Shown: positions 3,593 through 15,505 of the stretch, piece after piece | Position numbering within the stretch: the stretch's first letter is position 1 | Layout of the letters: the number at the start of each line of letters is the position of its first letter | Source: a virus | Lineage: Duplodnaviria > Caudoviricetes | DNA length: 64,000 nucleotides | Reading direction: 5' to 3' (one strand) | Virus record (IMG/VR): IMGVR_UViG_3300005434_000009 | Coordinates: 1 to 64,000 of that record | Translations under genes and position numbers: made by a program | The notes under the pieces: generated by a model | Database searches by the model: none | Told to the model about the DNA's origin: nothing | Seen by the model: the letters and a program-made list of their open reading frames with translations, nothing else

Positions 3593-3780
3593 CAGTTCGT
3601 CCCCTCCACCACTCGGGCGGTGAGGGCAGCGACACGGAAGGCGCGGGTGGCACGCTTCGCATCGGCCTTCCGGGAGTAGCTCTGCGACGGCGAGATGATC
3701 TCCCCGTTCGCCGCCACCAGCCGGAACCGCCACCTGCCGGAAGCGTCGGGGAAGATCTCAAAACGGGCGAGCTTGGCCAT
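3592..3780 (-). CDS. YegP/DUF1508 family protein
   Basis: FEIFPDASGRWRFRLVAANGEIISPSQSYSRKADA matches DUF1508 pattern. Confidence 0.85.
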   Translation of the reverse strand: MAKLARFEIFPDASGRWRFRLVAANGEIISPSQSYSRKADAKRATRAFRVAALTARVVEGTN

Positions 3781-4097
3781 CAGGCTGCTTCTCCTCTGAT
3801 CGAACGGGCTATATCGCACTTCTCCACATGCGCCAAAGCCATCAACTCCGCGTCTAACCGGTCCCCCGATTCGCAGAACAGGACGCACTGGCACGGCAGG
3901 ACGATCACCGGGCGACCCAACGGGTGCAGACGTCTGCCTGCCGGGTGCCGGGCCATGTGCGCCAGCAACGACTCCACCTGCTTGGCCCGGATCCGTTTGT
4001 GGCGGCGGATGAGGAACCCCAACACGGCGGCGGCACCGAAGCCGGCGCACACCCAGAAGCCGAGGATGGCCAGGATGAGCAACAGGGTGGGATCCAT
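3780..4097 (-). CDS. Membrane protein
   Basis: N-terminal hydrophobic helix LLLILAILGFWVCAGFGAAAVLGFLI. Confidence 0.6.
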   Translation of the reverse strand: MDPTLLLILAILGFWVCAGFGAAAVLGFLIRRHKRIRAKQVESLLAHMARHPAGRRLHPLGRPVIVLPCQCVLFCESGDRLDAELMALAHVEKCDIARSIRGEAA

Positions 4098-4426
4098 CAG
4101 GGCGTCGCCCCCGCGATCAGGGCGCGCTTCAGATCCTCGTAGCAGCGGACCTTGTTCATCAACTGCGACCTCTCGGTGTGGCATTCGATGACGATCCCGG
4201 TCTCGATGTGGGTGACGCGGACACCCCGGCCGTAGTTCTCGTGCGCGAGCGCACCCGGCGGGTCATAGAACTCGATGCTCAGGTCTTCGGCGTACACCGT
4301 CGGCGCGGCGTTGACCGCCATCACCACCTGCTTGGCGAGCTCGGCGGTGTCCATCAGGCCCACCAGACGGTCACCGATGTACAAGGTCCGGCCGACGCTG
4401 CTACCTACGCGCCAGTGCTCGCTCAT
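4097..4426 (-). CDS. Peptide release factor (RF-1 domain 3)-like protein lacking GGQ
   Basis: EDLSIEFYDPPGALAHENYGRGVRVTHIETGIVIECHTERSQLMNK aligns by eye with RF1 [43 protein letters not shown]. Confidence 0.75.
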   Translation of the reverse strand: MSEHWRVGSSVGRTLYIGDRLVGLMDTAELAKQVVMAVNAAPTVYAEDLSIEFYDPPGALAHENYGRGVRVTHIETGIVIECHTERSQLMNKVRCYEDLKRALIAGATP

Positions 4427-4767
4427 CGCTGCCTCCGGTTCAGCCAGTCGGCCACGAACTCATACCAGTCCTCTTCAAGTCGGCTGATGTCGTCACCGGC
4501 CTCTTCCCACCACGCCCGCTCAGCCGCCCGCACGTCCTCGGCCGTGATGTGGGCCGGGGGCTGGGCGGCGGCTTCGGAGAGGACGGCGCGAGCTACGGCG
4601 ATCCAGTGATGCTGGTTGTCGCGGTCGCCGCGCCACCAGGCTTCGCTCCATGAGTCAGCGCCGTACAGAGTCCGCCTACTGGCCGCCGCTGCTGCCCGAC
4701 CAAGCGCAACTAAGGAGGGGTCGTATTCAATCCCGGTCGCTGGGTCGATCAGAGGGTGCGCGCTCAT
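4423..4767 (-). CDS. Hypothetical protein
   Basis: MSAHPLID...; ATGA overlaps. Confidence 0.6.
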   Translation of the reverse strand: MSAHPLIDPATGIEYDPSLVALGRAAAAASRRTLYGADSWSEAWWRGDRDNQHHWIAVARAVLSEAAAQPPAHITAEDVRAAERAWWEEAGDDISRLEEDWYEFVADWLNRRQR

Positions 4768-8034: not shown

Positions 8035-8771
8035 GCCGCCGCCTCCGTGTTAGGTTCCCGCACCCGACGTACCGCCCTGCACCGCATGTGACCGTCGGCG
8101 TCCACATAGGTGGTGTCGGAGTTGTACGGGGTCAGGACGTGCCGTTCGGGTCGGCAGCGGCACAGCTTCTCCCCCGGCAGCAACGTGCGCTGCTCAGCGG
8201 GAAGCAGCCGTTCGGCCTGCCGGCGACGGTCGATCCCCACCCGGCACAGGCGTTGACCGCGCGGATCCACATACGTCGACTCGGAGGTCTCCGCCGTCAA
8301 CACGTGTTTGCGGCCCGGGCAACGGCACAGCACCGGGGCGTTGGGGTCCTTCACCTTCTTCGGACCCCGCTTACGGCGCTGATCACACCCACGGCACCGC
8401 AGACGGCCGGTGGTTTCGTTGCGGCGGATGTTCTCCGGGATCCACGGGTGATCCCCCGCGGCGCACTTCCCGTTGTCACCGTGCCGACGTGACGCCCCCG
8501 CAACAGCCCCTGGTTCGCCCTCTGCCGCATCCTCGGTGTCCGGTGCGGGTGTGGAGACCATGTCGGTGCGTAGACGCCCGTAGGAGTCCCTGGGGACACT
8601 CAAACCCGACCCGACCGGTTCAGCCAGGCCCATCATTTCCAGCGACTCCCGCAGCTCATCCTTCGGGATATTTCGCCGCTCCATCATGTTCACAAGACGG
8701 ATACGCACCAACCGGGCCTGCTCCGCATCACAACCGACTGGGGTGAGGCGAGAACCACCGCCGAAATCCAT
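8031..8771 (-). CDS. Protein with three C..H..C..(C) Zn-finger-like repeats
   Basis: Repeats CAAGDH..RCRGC, CRCPGRKH..LCR, CRCRPERH..RCR resemble the C-terminal module of the HNH at 47601. Confidence 0.6.
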   Translation of the reverse strand: MDFGGGSRLTPVGCDAEQARLVRIRLVNMMERRNIPKDELRESLEMMGLAEPVGSGLSVPRDSYGRLRTDMVSTPAPDTEDAAEGEPGAVAGASRRHGDNGKCAAGDHPWIPENIRRNETTGRLRCRGCDQRRKRGPKKVKDPNAPVLCRCPGRKHVLTAETSESTYVDPRGQRLCRVGIDRRRQAERLLPAEQRTLLPGEKLCRCRPERHVLTPYNSDTTYVDADGHMRCRAVRRVREPNTEAAA

Positions 8772-9217
8772 CAGGCCACCTCTGATTCGTTCGCTCGGGC
8801 CGCGCGCATTCGGCGCAGCGGGGGATCAGCTAAATACGACAGGCCGTCCTCGAGGTCGCCGACGAACCTTCCGAGGAGCAGGAAATTGTGCGGGGCGCAC
8901 AAGATCCCCCTCGGCTCCCCCGTGACGTGGTCGTGATCCACCGCCAACTTCCGGGCCCTCCCATTCGCCGTACACGACGGGATCGCGCACGTCCCACCCT
9001 GAAACGCCAACAACTCCTCGTACTCCCCCGGGTCCAACCCGTAGGTCTTCACCACCCGGGAGTCATGACGGGCCTGCTTCTGCGCCTTCACATGGGCCCG
9101 CCAATGGGTGTTGCAGCGACGCGAACGAGGACCACCATGGACAGCTGGGCGGGGCTTCTGCGGGCGGTCATCCACCGGGAGAGCAGCACAATCGACGCAG
9201 GCGTGTTGTGAACTCAC
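8771..9217 (-). CDS. Endonuclease VII (Holliday junction resolvase)
   Basis: YGL..EY..L...QGG.CAI...LAVDHDH.TG..RGILC..HN. Confidence 0.9.
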   Translation of the reverse strand: MSSQHACVDCAALPVDDRPQKPRPAVHGGPRSRRCNTHWRAHVKAQKQARHDSRVVKTYGLDPGEYEELLAFQGGTCAIPSCTANGRARKLAVDHDHVTGEPRGILCAPHNFLLLGRFVGDLEDGLSYLADPPLRRMRAARANESEVA

Positions 9218-10506
9218 GGGATCGCATCCTCGATGTCGAATAACGGATCGACCTCAGGTAGCTCCATGACCTGCGCGGTGTGAGTCACCGCCTGCTCCAG
9301 CGCCGCGCGTTCCTTGCGGGCGGACTGGATGGCCCGGAACTGAAGCCAGGCCTCCGACTTAGGCTGCGCCTGGCCGAGCCCCTTGCACCACCAGTCGTTC
9401 CGCAGGATGCATTTCGCTAGGCGCCGCCATGACGGAACCCACTGCTTGGCCTCCAACACCATCGGAGCCTCATCGGGGATCTCCGCGTAACCCCGCCCGA
9501 TCCAGCCCTTCAGGAACGACTGAAACCGGCGGATGTAGTGCTCGCGGGTCTTCTTCGGCAGCGACGCCAACAGCAGGTTGGTGTAGGACTTCCAGGTGTG
9601 ACCGGCAGGTAGGTCAACGTGGCCGTAGCCGGCGACGTTGCCGCGTTCCTGCACGTACAGGGCGCCGGTGTTGGCGCCGTTGACCCGGGCCACCAGTTTG
9701 AACCAGGTGTCCGGCTCGAGCAGGTGGTACAGCCACAACCCCTGCCGTTGGTCGTCGCCGTAGGGCTGGCACAGGCGTTGCTTAGACAACGGGACGCCGG
9801 CTTTGTGCATGAGGTCGTAGATGATGTTGTGCGGGTAGTCCGGGAAGCGGGCGTGGAACCGCCAAATGTCCTCGGTCTGCCAGTCGTAAATCGGGTACAC
9901 GTTGTACAGCTCGCGGCCGATCCCGGTGGTGAACCGGCGTCCCTTCCACATGGGTTTGCGGTCCCACTTCACGATCGTCCCCAACCGGTGCAGGGACTCA
10001 TCCGCCCGAATGCCGATCATGGCGGCGGTGCGTTGGCCTTCGGAGTACCGGTAGCCCCACTCGACCATGAACTCCTCGAACTCCATCCGAGGGATGAACC
10101 AGTCATAGCCGGGATGGGCATCGGCGGGGAGTTCGCGCACCCACTTATCCCGCTGGTCGGGGTCCCAGCAGGTCCACTGCGGTTCGAAGTTCGTGACCGC
10201 GTTCCGCAGGTTCAGCGGCAGGCACACCCAGTGCAGGTCGATGTGCTCCCGGTACATGTCCACACAGGTCTGGATGTGGTCGATGGTGGCCCGGTACTGG
10301 GCTTCCATGTCGATGATCAGCACCCCGACCTGGCGGCCGCGCCGGATCGCCTCCTCCATGGCCAGGTGCAGCATGACCGTGGAGTCCTTGCCGCCGGAGA
10401 AGCTGATGTACACCTTCTCGAACTCGTCGAACGTCCAGGCGATCCGCTCCCGGGCCGCCTGAAGGACCGTCTTGTTCGGGTTGTACTTCTTCCGCAAGTC
10501 AGTCAT
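9214..10506 (-). CDS. ibrA: PAPS-reductase/PP-loop family protein with DUF3440 (IbrA/YbdN-like)
   Basis: SFSGGKDS, IGIRADES..R, YPIYDW, QRLCQPYG, SWRRLAKCILRNDWWCK. Confidence 0.85.
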   Translation of the reverse strand: MTDLRKKYNPNKTVLQAARERIAWTFDEFEKVYISFSGGKDSTVMLHLAMEEAIRRGRQVGVLIIDMEAQYRATIDHIQTCVDMYREHIDLHWVCLPLNLRNAVTNFEPQWTCWDPDQRDKWVRELPADAHPGYDWFIPRMEFEEFMVEWGYRYSEGQRTAAMIGIRADESLHRLGTIVKWDRKPMWKGRRFTTGIGRELYNVYPIYDWQTEDIWRFHARFPDYPHNIIYDLMHKAGVPLSKQRLCQPYGDDQRQGLWLYHLLEPDTWFKLVARVNGANTGALYVQERGNVAGYGHVDLPAGHTWKSYTNLLLASLPKKTREHYIRRFQSFLKGWIGRGYAEIPDEAPMVLEAKQWVPSWRRLAKCILRNDWWCKGLGQAQPKSEAWLQFRAIQSARKERAALEQAVTHTAQVMELPEVDPLFDIEDAIP

Positions 10507-11690
10507 CAGTACAACTCCGGCTGGGTCTTACGCTCCGCGTCCTTCAACGTCGCCAACGTCGGACGGCCCACCGATGCCAGCCACTTGTTCAGGTGCTCGA
10601 ACGCGGCCTGGTTCGCCCGCTCCTGCTCCTCCTTGCTCATGAGGGAGAAGCCGTTGCAGAACGCCGCCGGCACACCGGAGTCCCAACACATCGCCGCCTG
10701 CCCCAACCAGGCGATCCTGTTCATGCGCTCGTTGGACAGGTTGTGCTCGGTGGAGTTCGGCCAGTCCTTGAACACCCCGTCCATGGCGATCTGGAATCGG
10801 GGGATGTCACGGAGGAAGTCCGCGTACATGGCCTTCATCCGATCCGCCGTCAACGTCCGGTTCGGTGGAGTTGAGTCGAAGAACCCGGCGGCGAACGCCT
10901 CCCACTTGTCCCAGGTGTGATAGATGCGCCCCGACTGACCGTCCGGCACCTCCACCTGCGGGATCTCCGCCTCCATGCCCTCGAAATCGTCGTCAGGGTC
11001 GGCGACGTCCCAAGACGCGGAGAACTCATCGTCGGAGAACAGTTCCGCGATGCCGGACATCTGGCACAGCCGCAACACCTCGTCGGCTTCCATGCCGAGT
11101 TCCCGGGCGATCCGCTCATCCGGCCAGTTGCGGGACTTCAGCTCCACCACAATGTCGGACATGGCGTCCACCCGGTGCTTACCCCGGGCCCGGTTGTGGC
11201 GGATCGTGGAAGCGATGCGGTCGTTGCGTCCCTGCTGCTCAGATCGGATACGGACCGCTGGGAGGTAGCCGTGGACCCGCTGGGCCACGTCGGGCATTTC
11301 CGTGCCGACCCGGTGGCGGTGGAAGCCGTCGATGACCACTCGACCGTCGTCGTCGGGCATGGTCACGATCGGTTGGGTGTAGCCGTCGTTCATGATGGAG
11401 ATCCGGAGCAACTCCAGCTCAGGAGGGGCTACGACGTTCGGGTTGTAATCGTTCGCCCTGATGTCGCCGTTCGGGATCCACTCGACCAAATCCACGGGCT
11501 CCGTCTGAAACGGAGAGTGCTCAGCCAACACCGCGCGGAGCTCGTTGAGCAGCTGCACCCGCTGCGGCATTTCCAACCCGCGAAACCAGAGCTTGGCCAG
11601 TGCGCGCAGATCCGCAACCGCCCGACTGGGGATGGTGGGAGGCGGAGCTGAGTCAGTTGCGGCCACTAGCTTGAGCTGTTCGGGGGTCAC
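10506..11690 (-). CDS. ibrB: ParB/Srx-like nuclease (IbrB/YbdM-like) fused to an extra C-terminal domain
   Basis: ANDYNPN.VAPPE, VIDGFHR, RIASTIRHNRARGKH, LGMEADEVLRL; extra RIYHTWDKWE...NRIAWLGQAA domain; start re-called at GTGA overlap. Confidence 0.8.
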   Translation of the reverse strand: MTPEQLKLVAATDSAPPPTIPSRAVADLRALAKLWFRGLEMPQRVQLLNELRAVLAEHSPFQTEPVDLVEWIPNGDIRANDYNPNVVAPPELELLRISIMNDGYTQPIVTMPDDDGRVVIDGFHRHRVGTEMPDVAQRVHGYLPAVRIRSEQQGRNDRIASTIRHNRARGKHRVDAMSDIVVELKSRNWPDERIARELGMEADEVLRLCQMSGIAELFSDDEFSASWDVADPDDDFEGMEAEIPQVEVPDGQSGRIYHTWDKWEAFAAGFFDSTPPNRTLTADRMKAMYADFLRDIPRFQIAMDGVFKDWPNSTEHNLSNERMNRIAWLGQAAMCWDSGVPAAFCNGFSLMSKEEQERANQAAFEHLNKWLASVGRPTLATLKDAERKTQPELY

Positions 11691-11860
11691 CGGTGCCACC
11701 CCGCCGGCATCCTCGGAACCGCGTACTTCAGCAACCGCCGTGCGGCTTCCGACCAGCTCAGGCCGTCCCGGTCCGCTACCAGCCCGATCTCCTCCGCGAT
11801 CACATCCTCCAACCGGAGGGAGTGGGTCGTGCGTGGAGGCTCCTTCTTCGTGTTCGTCAT
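11687..11860 (-). CDS. Ribbon-helix-helix DNA-binding protein
   Basis: THSLRLEDVIAEEI..VADRDGLSWSEAARRLL (beta-alpha-alpha pattern). Confidence 0.7.
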   Translation of the reverse strand: MTNTKKEPPRTTHSLRLEDVIAEEIGLVADRDGLSWSEAARRLLKYAVPRMPAGWHR

Positions 11861-11872
11861 GCTCACATCGTA
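11861..11872 (-). promoter_or_regulatory. Putative leaderless promoter (-10 TACGAT, 6 nt before ATG)
   Basis: TANNNT hexamer 6 nt upstream of RHH ATG, no RBS. Confidence 0.45.
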
Positions 11873-11923
11873 TTGCATCGTCATGCGTTGTAGCGGGCCA
11901 GGGAAGCGCCATCAGGTCGCCGG

Positions 11924-12175
11924 TCACGCCGCACCGTCTTTCTGTTCGTCGTCCTGGACAGCGGTCGGATGGGCGGCCTTCACATGCCGCTGACCAGCCA
12001 CAAGCGCCGCGATCTTCGACTCATGCACCGCCTTCCACCCACACCCGCAGCGAGCCACATGGCCGTAGAAAGTGGCAGCCGTCATCACCTGGTTAATCTC
12101 GCTCGGTCCGGGGCTCACGCCTCCTCCCCCTGGGAGGCGAACCTTCAACGCCCTAGCCCTCGTCGGGTCGGTCAT
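11924..12175 (-). CDS. Small CxCGW..H Zn-binding protein
   Basis: ARCGCGWK..H motif, similar to 35689..36000. Confidence 0.55.
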   Translation of the reverse strand: MTDPTRARALKVRLPGGGGVSPGPSEINQVMTAATFYGHVARCGCGWKAVHESKIAALVAGQRHVKAAHPTAVQDDEQKDGAA

Positions 12176-12879
12176 GCCGCTCCCTCACCGGTCGAAGTGC
12201 GCTCCTCTAGATTCGCAAGCTCGCCCTGCCCTGGGATGGTGCGCAACGCCGTGAACGCGGTGACGGCCTTGGCCATCTCCAACACCACGTGCTCGGGTGT
12301 ATCGCAGGCTTCCTTCCCGGTGAATCGGGCGATCCGCCAGCCCTCAAGCTCGAGTGCCCTGTGCCGTTTGCGGTCGTTCTCGAACGTCTTCTTGTCCGAG
12401 TGGTAGGCGTAGCCGTCGATCTCGAACGCGATCCGCTTGTCCGGCAGGGCGAAGTCCAGGCGGTACTTGAACAGGTCGTGCTGGGCGACCAGGCCTTCCA
12501 GCTCCGGCAGGTTCATCTGGGTGTGCGCTTCCCAGACGCGAAGCTCAGCCTCGGAGTCGAGCCGCACGGGAACCGGCGGGTCGATCTCCTGGGACTCCAC
12601 CAGCGTCACGCCCTTGTGCTGGGTGAAGACGATGGCGAACTTTCCGCCGCACATCTCGCACCACCCGTGGAGCGCGATCCGATGCCGGTGGCCGGTGCAT
12701 ACCCGATTCCCTATCGGGACCACTTCGGATCCGATCTGGCCGGCCTTGGTGACCGAGATGTGGGTGATCTCGCCGTCCTCCCGAATGCGAGCAGCTACCC
12801 GTGCCTCGTCGACGTGGACGTACACGTCGCCGCAGAGCGGGCAGCAAAGCTGTTCGGCCCTGTCCGTGTAGACGCTCAT
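12172..12879 (-). CDS. Zn-ribbon plus DUF559/Vsr-like endonuclease fusion
   Basis: N-terminal CPLC..CEMC; C-terminal YRLDFALPDKRIAFEIDGYAYH..DRKRHRALELEGWRIARFT. Confidence 0.8.
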   Translation of the reverse strand: MSVYTDRAEQLCCPLCGDVYVHVDEARVAARIREDGEITHISVTKAGQIGSEVVPIGNRVCTGHRHRIALHGWCEMCGGKFAIVFTQHKGVTLVESQEIDPPVPVRLDSEAELRVWEAHTQMNLPELEGLVAQHDLFKYRLDFALPDKRIAFEIDGYAYHSDKKTFENDRKRHRALELEGWRIARFTGKEACDTPEHVVLEMAKAVTAFTALRTIPGQGELANLEERTSTGEGAA

Positions 12880-14462
12880 GCGCGCTCCTTGAAGTCTTCG
12901 TCGACCAGCCACGGCCAGTCGTTGGGGTCCTCGCTCCACTTCAGGGCCCGTGGCCAGTGGCGTTCGTCGCGGTTGCCACGCCACGGCTGCACCACGACGT
13001 TCTTGCAGGGGTAGTCGTCGGTGGCCGGCCGGATCCCCATGCCCATCTCGGGCCACCGCATCAGCAGGCTCGACCCGAACGGGCGGAGCGTGCGGACACC
13101 GTTGGAGGCGTGTGGGGCGTGGTGCTCAACGATCAGTGCGCAATCGGCGTGCACCCGGGCGGCATCCAGCGCGGCAACGACTCGGCGGGCGCCCTTCTCC
13201 TCTTCGGAGTCGGCGGCGTGGAGGCGGTAGAACGGCCCACACACCAGAAGGTCCGGTTTGTGCGCCACCACCCGCTCCATCAGCCAGGCGGTGTCGTCCG
13301 GGCGGGACAGGTCGATCCCCGTGGGCCGGTGGATGACGAACATCCCCCCATCCGGCACCCGGTGGTTCTTCAGCCGGGCCACCCGCTCCAGTCCGCGGAA
13401 GTGCTTGCGGCCCTGCCGTTCGGAGTTCTCGCAGTCGATGTACAGCACCTTCTGGCGTGGGATCGACTCCGACCGGAACGGGTGGATACCGGCGGCCGCC
13501 GCGACGGCGATCTGCCGGACCGTGAGCGACTTACCCAGTCCCTCGGTTCCGGTCCAGATCAGGCGATCCCCACGCTCGAGCAGCCCAGGTACGACCCAGG
13601 TGGTGGGCGGGTCCACTTCGGACAGGAACTCGTGGAGGTCCGGGGCGAGGAACACCACCGGGGCGACCTCGGTCGTCCACGTGACCAGCAGGTCGTCGAG
13701 CGTGCCGCCGGCCGCCAGGTGGTCGGAGATGTCCTTGCCGCCCGTTGGTTCGACGATCGTCACCGAACCGGCGACCTCAGCGAGGGAGTCCGCTATCGCG
13801 CGGGCGTGGGCCTGGCCGGGCCTGTCGCAGTCGGCGACGATCCGGACGTGGGCGTCCACGAAATGGTCGGTGTACTCGTCGAGCCACTTTCCCGGCCCGG
13901 CGCCGCCGGAGTTGCAGGTGGCGGTGATCCCGTGGCGGGCGAGGGTTTCGACGTCCTTCTCACCTTCGACGACCCACACCGTCTGCCCTGCTTCGAGCGC
14001 GGCGATGAGCTCAGGGAGCCGGTAGAGCACCTTTCGGGTGTCGCCGAGTTTCCAACGCCAGCCAGACTTGGCGATCGGGTCCGGTACCCGCTGGCGGAAA
14101 GTCTTCGATCCGCCGGGCTGCGGGACGCGCAGCACCTGGAACAGGAGCTTCCCGCTCTCGTCGCGGTAGTCGTAGACGTGGCTTGCCGGGCCGGCCGGGG
14201 TCCACTCCTCGTCGTTCTCCCGTCGCTCCTCCGGAGGTAGCGAGATGTCGGCCCACGTGAGTTCCAGGGCGGCGAGGATGTCCTCGGTCTGACATCCGGC
14301 GTGGCAGTTCAGGACGACCGGCTGCGTGGTCCCCGGGGTGATCGACAGGCTCGGGTTGTGATCCTCATGGGCCGGGCAGCGGGACTGGAATCCGCCGGCG
14401 ACGCTGCGGACGCCCACCAGTCGTGGGAGCAGCGTGTCGTGCAGGACATCTGCGACCGTCAT
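12876..14462 (-). CDS. DNA primase-helicase (Zn-binding, TOPRIM, AAA_25/RepA-type ATPase)
   Basis: CPAHED..C.AGC; VVEGEKD, VADCD; Walker A GTEGLGKS. Confidence 0.9.
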   Translation of the reverse strand: MTVADVLHDTLLPRLVGVRSVAGGFQSRCPAHEDHNPSLSITPGTTQPVVLNCHAGCQTEDILAALELTWADISLPPEERRENDEEWTPAGPASHVYDYRDESGKLLFQVLRVPQPGGSKTFRQRVPDPIAKSGWRWKLGDTRKVLYRLPELIAALEAGQTVWVVEGEKDVETLARHGITATCNSGGAGPGKWLDEYTDHFVDAHVRIVADCDRPGQAHARAIADSLAEVAGSVTIVEPTGGKDISDHLAAGGTLDDLLVTWTTEVAPVVFLAPDLHEFLSEVDPPTTWVVPGLLERGDRLIWTGTEGLGKSLTVRQIAVAAAAGIHPFRSESIPRQKVLYIDCENSERQGRKHFRGLERVARLKNHRVPDGGMFVIHRPTGIDLSRPDDTAWLMERVVAHKPDLLVCGPFYRLHAADSEEEKGARRVVAALDAARVHADCALIVEHHAPHASNGVRTLRPFGSSLLMRWPEMGMGIRPATDDYPCKNVVVQPWRGNRDERHWPRALKWSEDPNDWPWLVDEDFKERA

Positions 14463-15505
14463 GACGAGTACCTCGTCACGTCGGCCCACGGAGACCGGTT
14501 CGGGTTGATCGCGTCGTTGTTGGCCTTCGCGCGGTCGGCGTTCGCGCGCCACTCCTCCCGGGCCCGTAGGGCGAGCTTGTCGTACTTCTCCCGGAACGTG
14601 GGGATCGAGTGGATGTTGGCCATCCAGAACGCGTCCTGCTGACACCAGTCGATCAGGTTCAGCGCCTTCGAGAGCTCGCGCTTGTCCCGGTCGAGCATCA
14701 GCCGCGCCTGCCGCCGCCATTCCTTCGTGATGGTCGGAGCCTTGACACCGTTCTGGATCATCCACTCGCGCAACCGGTCGCAGAGCGCGTCCACGTCGTC
14801 CCGCCGAGCTTCATCGTCCGAGCATTCGTCCGGCTTCGGCGCAGCCGAATCGGACCGAGAAGAATCAACTGCAGAAGCTGAAGAACTCCCCCTAACCTTC
14901 CCCCGTTCCTTACCCGGGGGTTCGGCGAAGTCTTCCGCGAAGGGTTCATTGGAAGGGTTTCCGGAAGGGTTCGGCGAACCCTCTTCGGGCTGGTTATTTA
15001 GGACCCTTGGAGGTGGTTGAGGTGCGCCCTCCGGATCGAGTTCATCCGCACATGCATGCGGGTCTGGGTAGACCATGACCCGGTTGGTTCCGACCGACTT
15101 CGCTGGCGGTGCCGGTGGGAGCTTGCGAAGCTCGACGGCGAGGGTCTTGCGAATGATCGGAGACCGAGCCAGGCGGGCATGAGCCAACGCCTGCTTCAGG
15201 ACGTTCGGCTGGTCGGCGATACCGTCGTTGCGGATGAACGACCGCACCAGAACCTCACGGCGCCGCTCGCCGACCACAACGAACCGGGCTTCGACCAGCT
15301 CATCCAGCGCGTCTTCCAGCTCACTGAGGCCTAGTCCCAGATCCTCCGCCCACTCTTCGTCGCACACTGGCATCACCCCGGCGGCATTCAGGTAGGCGTC
15401 CTGAAGCAGGAAGACGTACAGCAACTTCGCGTGCGGGGTCAGCGCCCGCATTTCCGGGTCACCACTCAGGGCGCCCACTTTTAGCCTTGCGTGTGCACGG
15501 GCCAT
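14459..15505 (-). CDS. Replication initiator (RepA/O-like)
   Basis: N-terminal wHTH-like LTPHAKLLYVFLL, central low-complexity linker with iteron-like repeats, C-terminal IDWCQQDAFW..NIHSIPTFREKYDKL; sits before primase-helicase. Confidence 0.75.
   Translation of the reverse strand: MARAHARLKVGALSGDPEMRALTPHAKLLYVFLLQDAYLNAAGVMPVCDEEWAEDLGLGLSELEDALDELVEARFVVVGERRREVLVRSFIRNDGIADQPNVLKQALAHARLARSPIIRKTLAVELRKLPPAPPAKSVGTNRVMVYPDPHACADELDPEGAPQPPPRVLNNQPEEGSPNPSGNPSNEPFAEDFAEPPGKERGKVRGSSSASAVDSSRSDSAAPKPDECSDDEARRDDVDALCDRLREWMIQNGVKAPTITKEWRRQARLMLDRDKRELSKALNLIDWCQQDAFWMANIHSIPTFREKYDKLALRAREEWRANADRAKANNDAINPNRSPWADVTRYSS
14917..14986. repeat. Iteron-like repeats, candidate origin inside the initiator gene
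   Basis: GAAGGGTT at 14939, 14952, 14964; GGGTTCGGCGAA twice; inverted GAACCCTCTTC at 14976. Confidence 0.55.

Follow-up and report, generated by a model that had tools for sequence, protein, structure and literature searches.

The question raised by this locus is whether a small phage gene that resembles the catalytic domain of class I release factors (RFs), but lacks the GGQ motif, is a genuine and selected gene, and if so, how its product may act. The window analysed here is a 64-kb stretch of a 72.6-kb linear IMG/VR virus record (estimated 89% complete, GC ~66%). An initial annotation, made from the nucleotide sequence alone, had described the gene at window positions 4097-4426 as a mimic of RF domain 3 in which the GGQ tripeptide is replaced and the domain is fused to an unrelated N-terminus.

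Location and coding signature of the gene

The gene (4097-4426, minus strand) encodes a protein of 109 aa (P0001), in which an N-terminal module precedes a GGQ-less RF domain-3 core. Its GC content at codon positions 1, 2 and 3 is 0.63, 0.44 and 0.90, respectively, which is a high-GC coding pattern, and homologues of the complete product exist, with a dN/dS of 0.21 against one of them (L031, see below). A Shine-Dalgarno sequence (GGAGG; 4432-4436, minus strand, read as cctcc on the plus strand) lies 5 nt upstream of the ATG. The start codon overlaps the stop codon of the upstream gene (ATGA; 4423-4767, minus strand), which encodes a 114-aa product and is also called on the metagenome contig L012, and the TGA stop shares one base with the ATG of the downstream gene for a 105-aa protein (TGATG; 3780-4097, minus strand). 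With this coding signature, the Shine-Dalgarno sequence and the start/stop coupling to both neighbours, 4097-4426 on the minus strand is a real gene.

The genomic surroundings offer few functional clues. Neither the upstream 114-aa gene nor the downstream 105-aa protein has a Pfam, PHROG or PADLOC match, and the latter carries a hydrophobic N-terminal stretch that is apparently a membrane helix. A PADLOC analysis of P0001, three of its relatives and three neighbours likewise gave no match. The gene is part of an extended leftward block, made up of small genes without annotated function, which adjoins a DUF1508 gene and genes for an endonuclease VII, a PAPS-reductase/DUF3440 protein and a Toprim-AAA primase-helicase. 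The last three are encoded upstream within the same leftward block (8771-14765, minus strand), together with a 473-aa protein without a Pfam match, the primase-helicase being of the Toprim-AAA_25 type. The DUF1508 (YegP-like) gene is the second gene downstream of P0001 (3592-4050, minus strand); its Pfam match (E = 2e-11) covers residues 102-149 of a long ORF, and the true start is probably internal. No tRNA genes were found within the 64-kb window, and a search of the phage genome revealed no second RF-like or N-module gene. The neighbours are different in every relative, leaving no conserved gene partner. We take P0001 to be encoded by a real and presumably expressed accessory gene, which would belong to an early or replication-side block of a temperate-type actinomycete phage.

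The C-terminal part is a release-factor domain 3

The assignment of residues ~44-105 to class I RF domain 3, which the initial annotation had proposed, is borne out by Pfam, PHROG, NCBIfam, phmmer and structural matches. The core comprises residues 44-106 (4109-4297, minus strand) and consists of a strand, a loop, two strands and a long helix. The Pfam family RF-1 (PF00472), which the initial annotation had named for a check, matches residues 68-104 with 35.0 bits, exactly the gathering score of 35 (E = 1.5e-8), and over profile positions 33-70 only; in a six-frame search of the genome, the same family reached 34 bits, which is not over the cut-off. The profile of phrog_20323 ("RF-1 domain peptide chain release factor") covers nearly the whole core (E = 9.3e-11; residues 46-103 against positions 4-62 of 73). 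The NCBIfam models of the full-length factors match as well, confined to the domain-3 part (P0001 residues 43-104) and far from the equivalog cut-offs, with prfB (TIGR00020; residues 47-104 against positions 227-286) at 35.6 bits vs. 370 and prfA (TIGR00019) at 30.5 bits vs. 423. A phmmer comparison with RF1/RF2 sequences of the PDB aligned residues 41-103 (E = 1.6e-6). RF homology of the core is not in doubt at the profile level, because a family profile built from 16 members matches PDB RF1 with an E-value of 1.5e-17.

The predicted structure points in the same direction. The AlphaFold2 (AF2) model of P0001 has a mean pLDDT of 87, and Foldseek placed it on E. coli RF2 with an E-value of 1.7e-5 and an rmsd of 1.3 Å over 65 columns (35% identity); over domain 3 of E. 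coli RF2 and RF1 taken together, the rmsd is 1.3-1.5 Å for ~65 residues at 34%-37% identity. VIA-align gave a Z-score of 10.3 against RF1 (rmsd 2.1 Å over 68 residues). In the all-against-all structural search, RF1, mtRF1, mtRF-R, PrfH and RF2 were the best matches (Z 8.2-10.3), and ArfB and ICT1 ranked lower (Z 5.9-6.7), among dsRNA-binding domains.

The domain-3 fold of RF1/RF2 is present, GGQ is absent, and the full-length equivalog score is not reached. RF-1 is the only family that Pfam finds in the 109-aa protein, which lacks domains 2/4, PCRF (PF03462) and a PxT or SPF motif. There is no NCBIfam match to ArfB/ICT1 (PRK09256), and P0001 has neither the GGQ nor the basic tail of those proteins. 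The match to PHROG 20323 is significant, but its name implies an activity that is barred to P0001 by the known mechanism. Rather than an RF1, RF2, ArfB or PrfH, P0001 is a variant member of the RF-1 domain superfamily that lacks GGQ.

Loss of GGQ is conserved in a diversified family

The loop that holds GGQ in true RFs is shortened and rewritten in P0001 (residues 55-68, D-P-P-G-A-L-A-H-E-N-Y-G-R-G; 4223-4264, minus strand). Which residues stand opposite G-G-Q depends on the alignment: the pairwise phmmer alignment to PDB RF1/RF2 places L-A-gap there, in agreement with the initial annotation, and the profile alignment places P-G-A, with a three-residue deletion just upstream. There is no GGQ either way. 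Two other motifs of the domain are readily recognised, namely the T-H-x-P-T-G hairpin motif, which reads T-H-I-E-T-G in P0001 (4196-4213, minus strand), and the E-R-S-Q-x-x-N-K motif, which opens the long helix and is as in true release factors (4151-4174, minus strand).

Relatives were gathered by an exhaustive profile search over 1.84 billion representatives and by a word-indexed search. The profile search yielded 2103 matches at E ≤ 1e-3, of which the best 150 were viewed. Among the matches listed, about 25 relatives with an RF core have the same shortened loop, and none of these ~25 contains GGQ. Instead, the aligned positions read P-D-Q, x-G-Q, G-D-Q, P-D-A, P-G-A or P-Q-A. In 21 family members for which columns were counted, the Gln of GGQ is kept in 10 and replaced by Ala in 6, including P0001 and its nearest relatives, and at the position of the second Gly, 9 members have Asp and 6 have retained Gly. 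The loop also has residues of its own: position 63 (E63 in P0001) is acidic in 17/21 members (Lys in true RFs), R67 is found in 16/21 (Ser in true RFs) and G68 in 19/21 (Ala in true RFs), so that the loop of the GGQ-less family approximates x-[G/D]-[Q/A]-L-[A/V]-[H/N]-E-x-x-R-G-V. Outside the GGQ region, the superfamily motifs persist, with H73 and N91 invariant and P75, G77, R86 and S87 near-invariant; P0001 is the only one of the 21 members with a Glu in place of P75 of the T-H-x-P-T-G motif.

Selection could be gauged on a relative with 76% DNA identity, represented by three contigs from three samples (L031-L033). Against L031, dN/dS (Nei-Gojobori) amounts to 0.19 in the N-module and to 0.21 in both the RF core and the whole gene, at a dS of 0.7-0.9; pairs of 40%-56% identity gave values of 0.4-0.9, which are saturated and uninformative. 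Because the loop motif is shared, GGQ is missing from all ~25 relatives and dN/dS is close to 0.2, P0001 appears to be a selected protein with an ancestral loss of GGQ. Judged from these sequence comparisons, the loss is conserved and ancestral to a diversified family, and is not decay. The initial annotation had set consistent absence of GGQ from homologues against random decay; the family, with its own shared loop motif and low dN/dS on both halves of the protein, sides with the former. In a tree of the 65-column core, the GGQ-less proteins cluster, and the GGQ state needs at least two changes compared to ~12-16 for shuffled labels, although 65 columns are too few to tell how often GGQ was lost, and support for the key fork is only 44%. 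P0001 fits an informal group of "GGQ-less phage RF-domain proteins", having a phage-encoded core, retained motifs, relatives without GGQ and a signature of purifying selection.

The N-terminus is an orphan module of wide distribution

Most of the best 150 of the 2103 profile matches (E ≤ 1e-3) cover positions 1-45 only and thus represent the N-module without an RF core. In P0001, this module comprises residues 1-42 (4301-4426, minus strand) and is delimited by the profile matches, its invariant columns and the AF2 model, which shows three short strands followed by a helix (pLDDT 81-93). Eight columns are invariant among 30 divergent N-module proteins, and the consensus reads W-R-V-G-R-K-V-G-R-T-L-Y-x-G-D-x-L-V-G-x-M-D-T-P-E-L-A-x-x-V-V-x-A-V-N. 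The module is found at the N-terminus, at the C-terminus or in the middle of proteins from 50 to more than 400 residues, whose remaining parts are unrelated to each other (coiled coils, Cys-rich stretches and low-complexity regions). Its carriers in our data set (proteins P0011-P0154 and loci L016-L030) have it either as a stand-alone unit or joined to one or the other end of proteins that are unrelated. In the genome collection, the N-module occurs mostly in Actinomycetota (Nocardiopsis, Nakamurella, Solirubrobacteraceae and Mycobacteriales). The claim of the initial annotation that the first ~40 residues are unrelated to release factors is well supported by these data, the N-terminus having no RF homology and being a separate module in hundreds of proteins.

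Several deep branches of the family (P0004, P0007, P0008, P0009 and P0014) share the fusion of N-module and RF core, which is present twice in tandem in P0015 and P0112, and other relatives with an RF core have different N-terminal regions or none (P0027, P0137 and P0147). Further architectures were observed as well. P0015, P0112 and P0115 contain a tandem pair of RF cores that are reduced still further and have hardly any loop left; R-S-Q-x-x-N-K is degraded as well in P0015, where I-T-H-I-P-T persists, and both P0015 and P0112 carry the N-module in addition. P0119 (200 aa) has a GGQ-less RF core at its N-terminus, fused to a C-terminal domain of ~115 residues without a Pfam match.

Searches for the identity of the N-module returned little. 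Pfam gave no match to this part of P0001 at E ≤ 1, to 10 carriers, or to 30 members at E ≤ 10; there was no match in PHROGs or the ESM Atlas, none in the PDB by Foldseek at E ≤ 0.001, and none by tblastn in 50,697 phage records. The best VIA-align match (Z 5.9) is to the C-terminal half of PH domains and reflects a common strand-strand-strand-helix arrangement, and no recognisable RNA- or ribosome-binding fold emerged from the structure searches. The pattern G-x-[FM]-D-T-x-E-x-A bears some resemblance to the AP2/lambda-Int N-domain, an assignment that was rejected, as the lambda integrase DNA-binding domain (IntDBD) reached a Z-score of only 3.5 and Pfam AP2 did not match. Positions 29-44 of the family profile align with the stretch of RF1 that precedes domain 3. 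An origin of the module as a remnant of RF domain 2/4 was also rejected, since it is present in hundreds of proteins without an RF part. As judged from its sequence distribution, the N-module is an independent, widespread and very conserved orphan module. It poses a second, separate puzzle, as some 40 residues are preserved nearly letter for letter across hundreds of otherwise unrelated, Actinobacteria-linked proteins.

The gene is split, and possibly recombined, in close relatives

A megablast search with 3 kb found no near relative among cultured phages. The three contigs of the 76%-identical relative (L031, positions 270-596, L032 and L033) lack 8 nt of the target (AGGTGGTG, codons K32-V35, in the linker helix), and this deletion puts the two modules into different frames. 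The result is an ORF in which the N-module is followed by an out-of-frame tail, and a separate RF-core ORF of 74 aa (P0003), whose start corresponds to the M36 codon of the target. A different pattern was found on the 2.1-kb metagenome contig L012 (2088 nt), which is 99.9% identical to window positions 5669-4198 and then diverges inside the RF core. The 616 nt beyond position 4198 were found nowhere in this phage and continue as an open frame, which gives a product of 214 aa (P0006); the point of divergence may mark a mosaic junction or stem from chimeric assembly. The gene appears, from these contigs, to be dispensable or separable in close relatives.

The 20.7-kb contig of the closest relative, P0002, encodes an integrase and an intact 401-aa C5 DNA methylase, the latter two genes upstream of the RF-like gene. 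The same contig has a second gene for an RF-1 domain (58 aa) 6 kb downstream.

Possible modes of action

The initial annotation had read P0001 as a catalytically dead domain that could act as a decoy or dominant-negative. Its structural half stands, as P0001 has an RF domain 3 that lacks GGQ, homologues consistently share this loss and the N-terminus is unrelated to RFs; the roles that it suggested are taken up below, at lower strength. Peptide release requires both glycines of GGQ. With its GGQ loop shortened and rewritten, the C-terminal module would be a pseudoenzyme that retains the domain-3 fold and the D-L-x-I, T-H-x-P-T-G and E-R-S-Q-x-x-N-K motifs, and it would not hydrolyse peptidyl-tRNA by the known mechanism. 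Because such hydrolysis is not expected without GGQ, P0001 probably acts by binding rather than cutting. The simplest partner would be the domain-3 pocket on the A-site side of the 50S peptidyl-transferase centre (PTC), since it is exactly the non-catalytic motifs of working RFs that are kept. With this pocket occupied during infection, termination or ribosome rescue would be slowed or blocked, or recoding would be favoured, and the N-module may serve as a second binding or oligomerising handle in place of RF domains 2/4 or the ArfB tail. The PDB matches of P0001 include GGQ-mutant RFs in ribosomes (RF1(GAQ), mtRF1(AAQ) and GGD/GGS mutants), and GGQ mutants are known to retain ribosome binding and serve as traps. 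We favour the reading of P0001 as a non-catalytic binder of the 50S A-site/PTC pocket, although with somewhat less than even confidence.

Several features of the protein temper this reading. The GGQ-less cores have net charges of -8 to +3 (median 0; P0001 -3) vs. +1 to +5 (median +4) for 13 GGQ-bearing cores, and the loss of positive charge is the wrong direction for an rRNA binder. Ribosome binding by RF1/RF2 needs domains 2/4, and the GGQ domain by itself is not known to associate with ribosomes. P0001 ends three residues after the domain-3 helix, with no known ribosome anchor recognisable. ArfB, for its part, needs its basic C-terminal tail for ribosome binding (PMC3950681). Binding to the ribosome is thus made less probable by the acidic core, the missing anchoring element, the P75E exchange and the separability of the gene in relatives.

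The same loss of charge is easier to reconcile with a repurposed domain-3 scaffold that binds another RNA or a protein unrelated to the A site, with the variable N-terminal modules directing it. We regard this as possible but doubtful. The loop has gained a conserved acidic residue and an R-G pair, the N-terminal partners in relatives are many (coiled coils, Cys-rich segments and the N-module), and dsRNA-binding domains are structurally similar (Z 5.5-6.8), although this similarity is within the range of common arrangements. A precedent exists in the plant protein PrfB3, which has lost SPF and GGQ and stabilises the petB mRNA (PMC5897788). Such a change of role would, however, have to account for the fact that the retained motifs are exactly those common to working release factors, and gene neighbourhoods reveal no conserved partner.

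An acidic surface would suit protein binding rather than rRNA binding, and P0001 is a faithful structural copy of domain 3. Both features would be expected of a decoy that titrates a protein recognising RF domain 3, be it PrmC, which methylates GGQ, or a protein of host defence, both of which the initial annotation had also suggested, or else a toxin aimed at release factors; we consider this improbable. The Gln is kept in 10/21 relatives, but the PrmC idea fits P0001 poorly because the methyl-acceptor Gln is an Ala in P0001 (as in its nearest relatives), and the loop, which is shorter by three residues, adds to making it a poor mimic of a PrmC substrate. As for defence, there is neither a PADLOC match nor a defence-related neighbour, literature searches returned no defence system targeting RF domain 3, and we know of none.

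It is very unlikely that P0001 is a decaying remnant, without present function, of a once-active phage mini RF similar to the GGQ-bearing ones of Bxz1-like phages. The P75E exchange, the splitting of the gene by an 8-nt deletion in one relative and its truncation or recombination in another, as well as the small database clusters, would fit a gene on its way out. A dN/dS of ~0.2 on both halves is not expected of such a gene, nor are a conserved loop motif of the family's own, intact ORFs across a diverse family, a strong Shine-Dalgarno sequence and translational coupling. That P0001 is still a peptidyl-tRNA hydrolase using a variant motif is hardly credible, as many relatives do keep x-G-Q or x-D-Q at the aligned position, but P0001 has P-G-A in a shorter loop without Gln and lacks a ribosome-anchoring part, and both GGQ glycines are regarded as essential, RF1(GAQ)-type mutants being inactive traps.

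Should non-catalytic binding to the A-site/PTC pocket hold for P0001, it may extend further. It is conceivable, although we advance this only tentatively, that phages of many bacterial phyla carry dead RF domains that dock in this pocket of the host ribosome and tune termination, rescue or recoding, with the orphan 40-residue module as the anchor in the Actinobacteria-linked lineage. P0001 itself is small (109 aa, with a core of 60-65 aa). That a conserved, selected and apparently catalytically dead copy of the domain is kept by phages from five or more host groups suggests an unstudied viral action on termination or ribosome rescue, or alternatively a new use of the fold.

Comparison with known systems

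P0001 shares with RF1/RF2 the domain-3 fold, the order of its elements and the D-L-x-I, T-H-x-P-T-G and E-R-S-Q-x-x-N-K motifs. Unlike these factors, it lacks GGQ and domains 1, 2 and 4, its loop is ~3 residues shorter, its core is acidic, and it measures 109 aa compared to ~360 aa. In its small size, its use of the same domain and the absence of stop-codon reading, it resembles the rescue factors ArfB (YaeJ), ICT1, mtRF-R (C12orf65) and PrfH, with structural Z-scores of 9.3 for mtRF-R, 9.0 for PrfH, 6.7 for YaeJ and 5.9 for ICT1. However, these proteins keep both GGQ and a ribosome anchor, and P0001 has neither; the anchor is the basic C-terminal tail in ArfB and ICT1, without which binding fails (PMC3950681), and a partner or an extra domain in mtRF-R and PrfH. 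The link between strands β2 and β3 is the tight P-T-G hairpin of RF1/RF2 and not the insertion seen in ArfB/ICT1.

Phage genes annotated as "RF-1 domain peptide chain release factor" are common, and P0001 resembles the proteins of phrog_20323 and phrog_3122 in being a phage-encoded mini domain 3; those genes lie in early or replication gene blocks. For the GGQ-less family, database labels such as "peptide chain release factor" or "peptidyl-tRNA hydrolase" are misleading because this activity is excluded by the known mechanism. Other phage proteins of this kind do retain the motif. Gp208 of the Bxz1-like Mycobacterium phage MoMoMixon keeps G-G-Q, in contrast to the P0001 family, which also has the additional N-module. 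A search with a narrow alignment for related loci found only three distant viral loci; the two that were inspected (L003 and L004, on large viral contigs) keep GGQ. The GGQ-keeping genes L009:1429-1761 (MoMoMixon gp208), L003:5635-6396 and L004:5929-6282 encode neither stop-codon domains nor an ArfB tail, and the products may be active hydrolases with an unexplained route to the ribosome.

GGQ-less mini RF domains are also found elsewhere, in Pseudomonas phage LPPA15, C. difficile phage CDMH1 (gp77), Vibrio phage 249E41-1 and Acinetobacter phage PhT2, and tblastn aligned the P0001 core to GGQ-less domains of other phages with 38%-51% identity. Like P0001, these four proteins have kept T-H-x-P-[ST]-G and R-S-Q-x-x-N-K and lost GGQ. 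They differ in belonging to other lineages, in having other loops (e.g. G-A-S-N-W in phage PhT2) and in consisting of the core only or carrying other extensions. Among the sequences compared, fusion to the N-module and a loop with the E/R-G motif are particular to the Actinobacteria-linked family.

Full-text searches of the literature turned up no publication on phage RF domains without GGQ, and the nearest published analogies are PrfB3 and Balon. PrfB3 is a GGQ-less RF2 homologue of plants that stabilises the petB mRNA (PMC5897788), and Balon is a GGQ-lacking, aeRF1/Pelota-like hibernation factor found on idle bacterial ribosomes (PMC10901736). Both are non-viral, and unlike P0001, PrfB3 is a full-length factor and Balon belongs to the archaeo-eukaryotic eRF1 family, whose fold is unrelated to bacterial domain 3. 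They are nevertheless precedents for the retention of an RF-type protein that lacks GGQ in a binding role.
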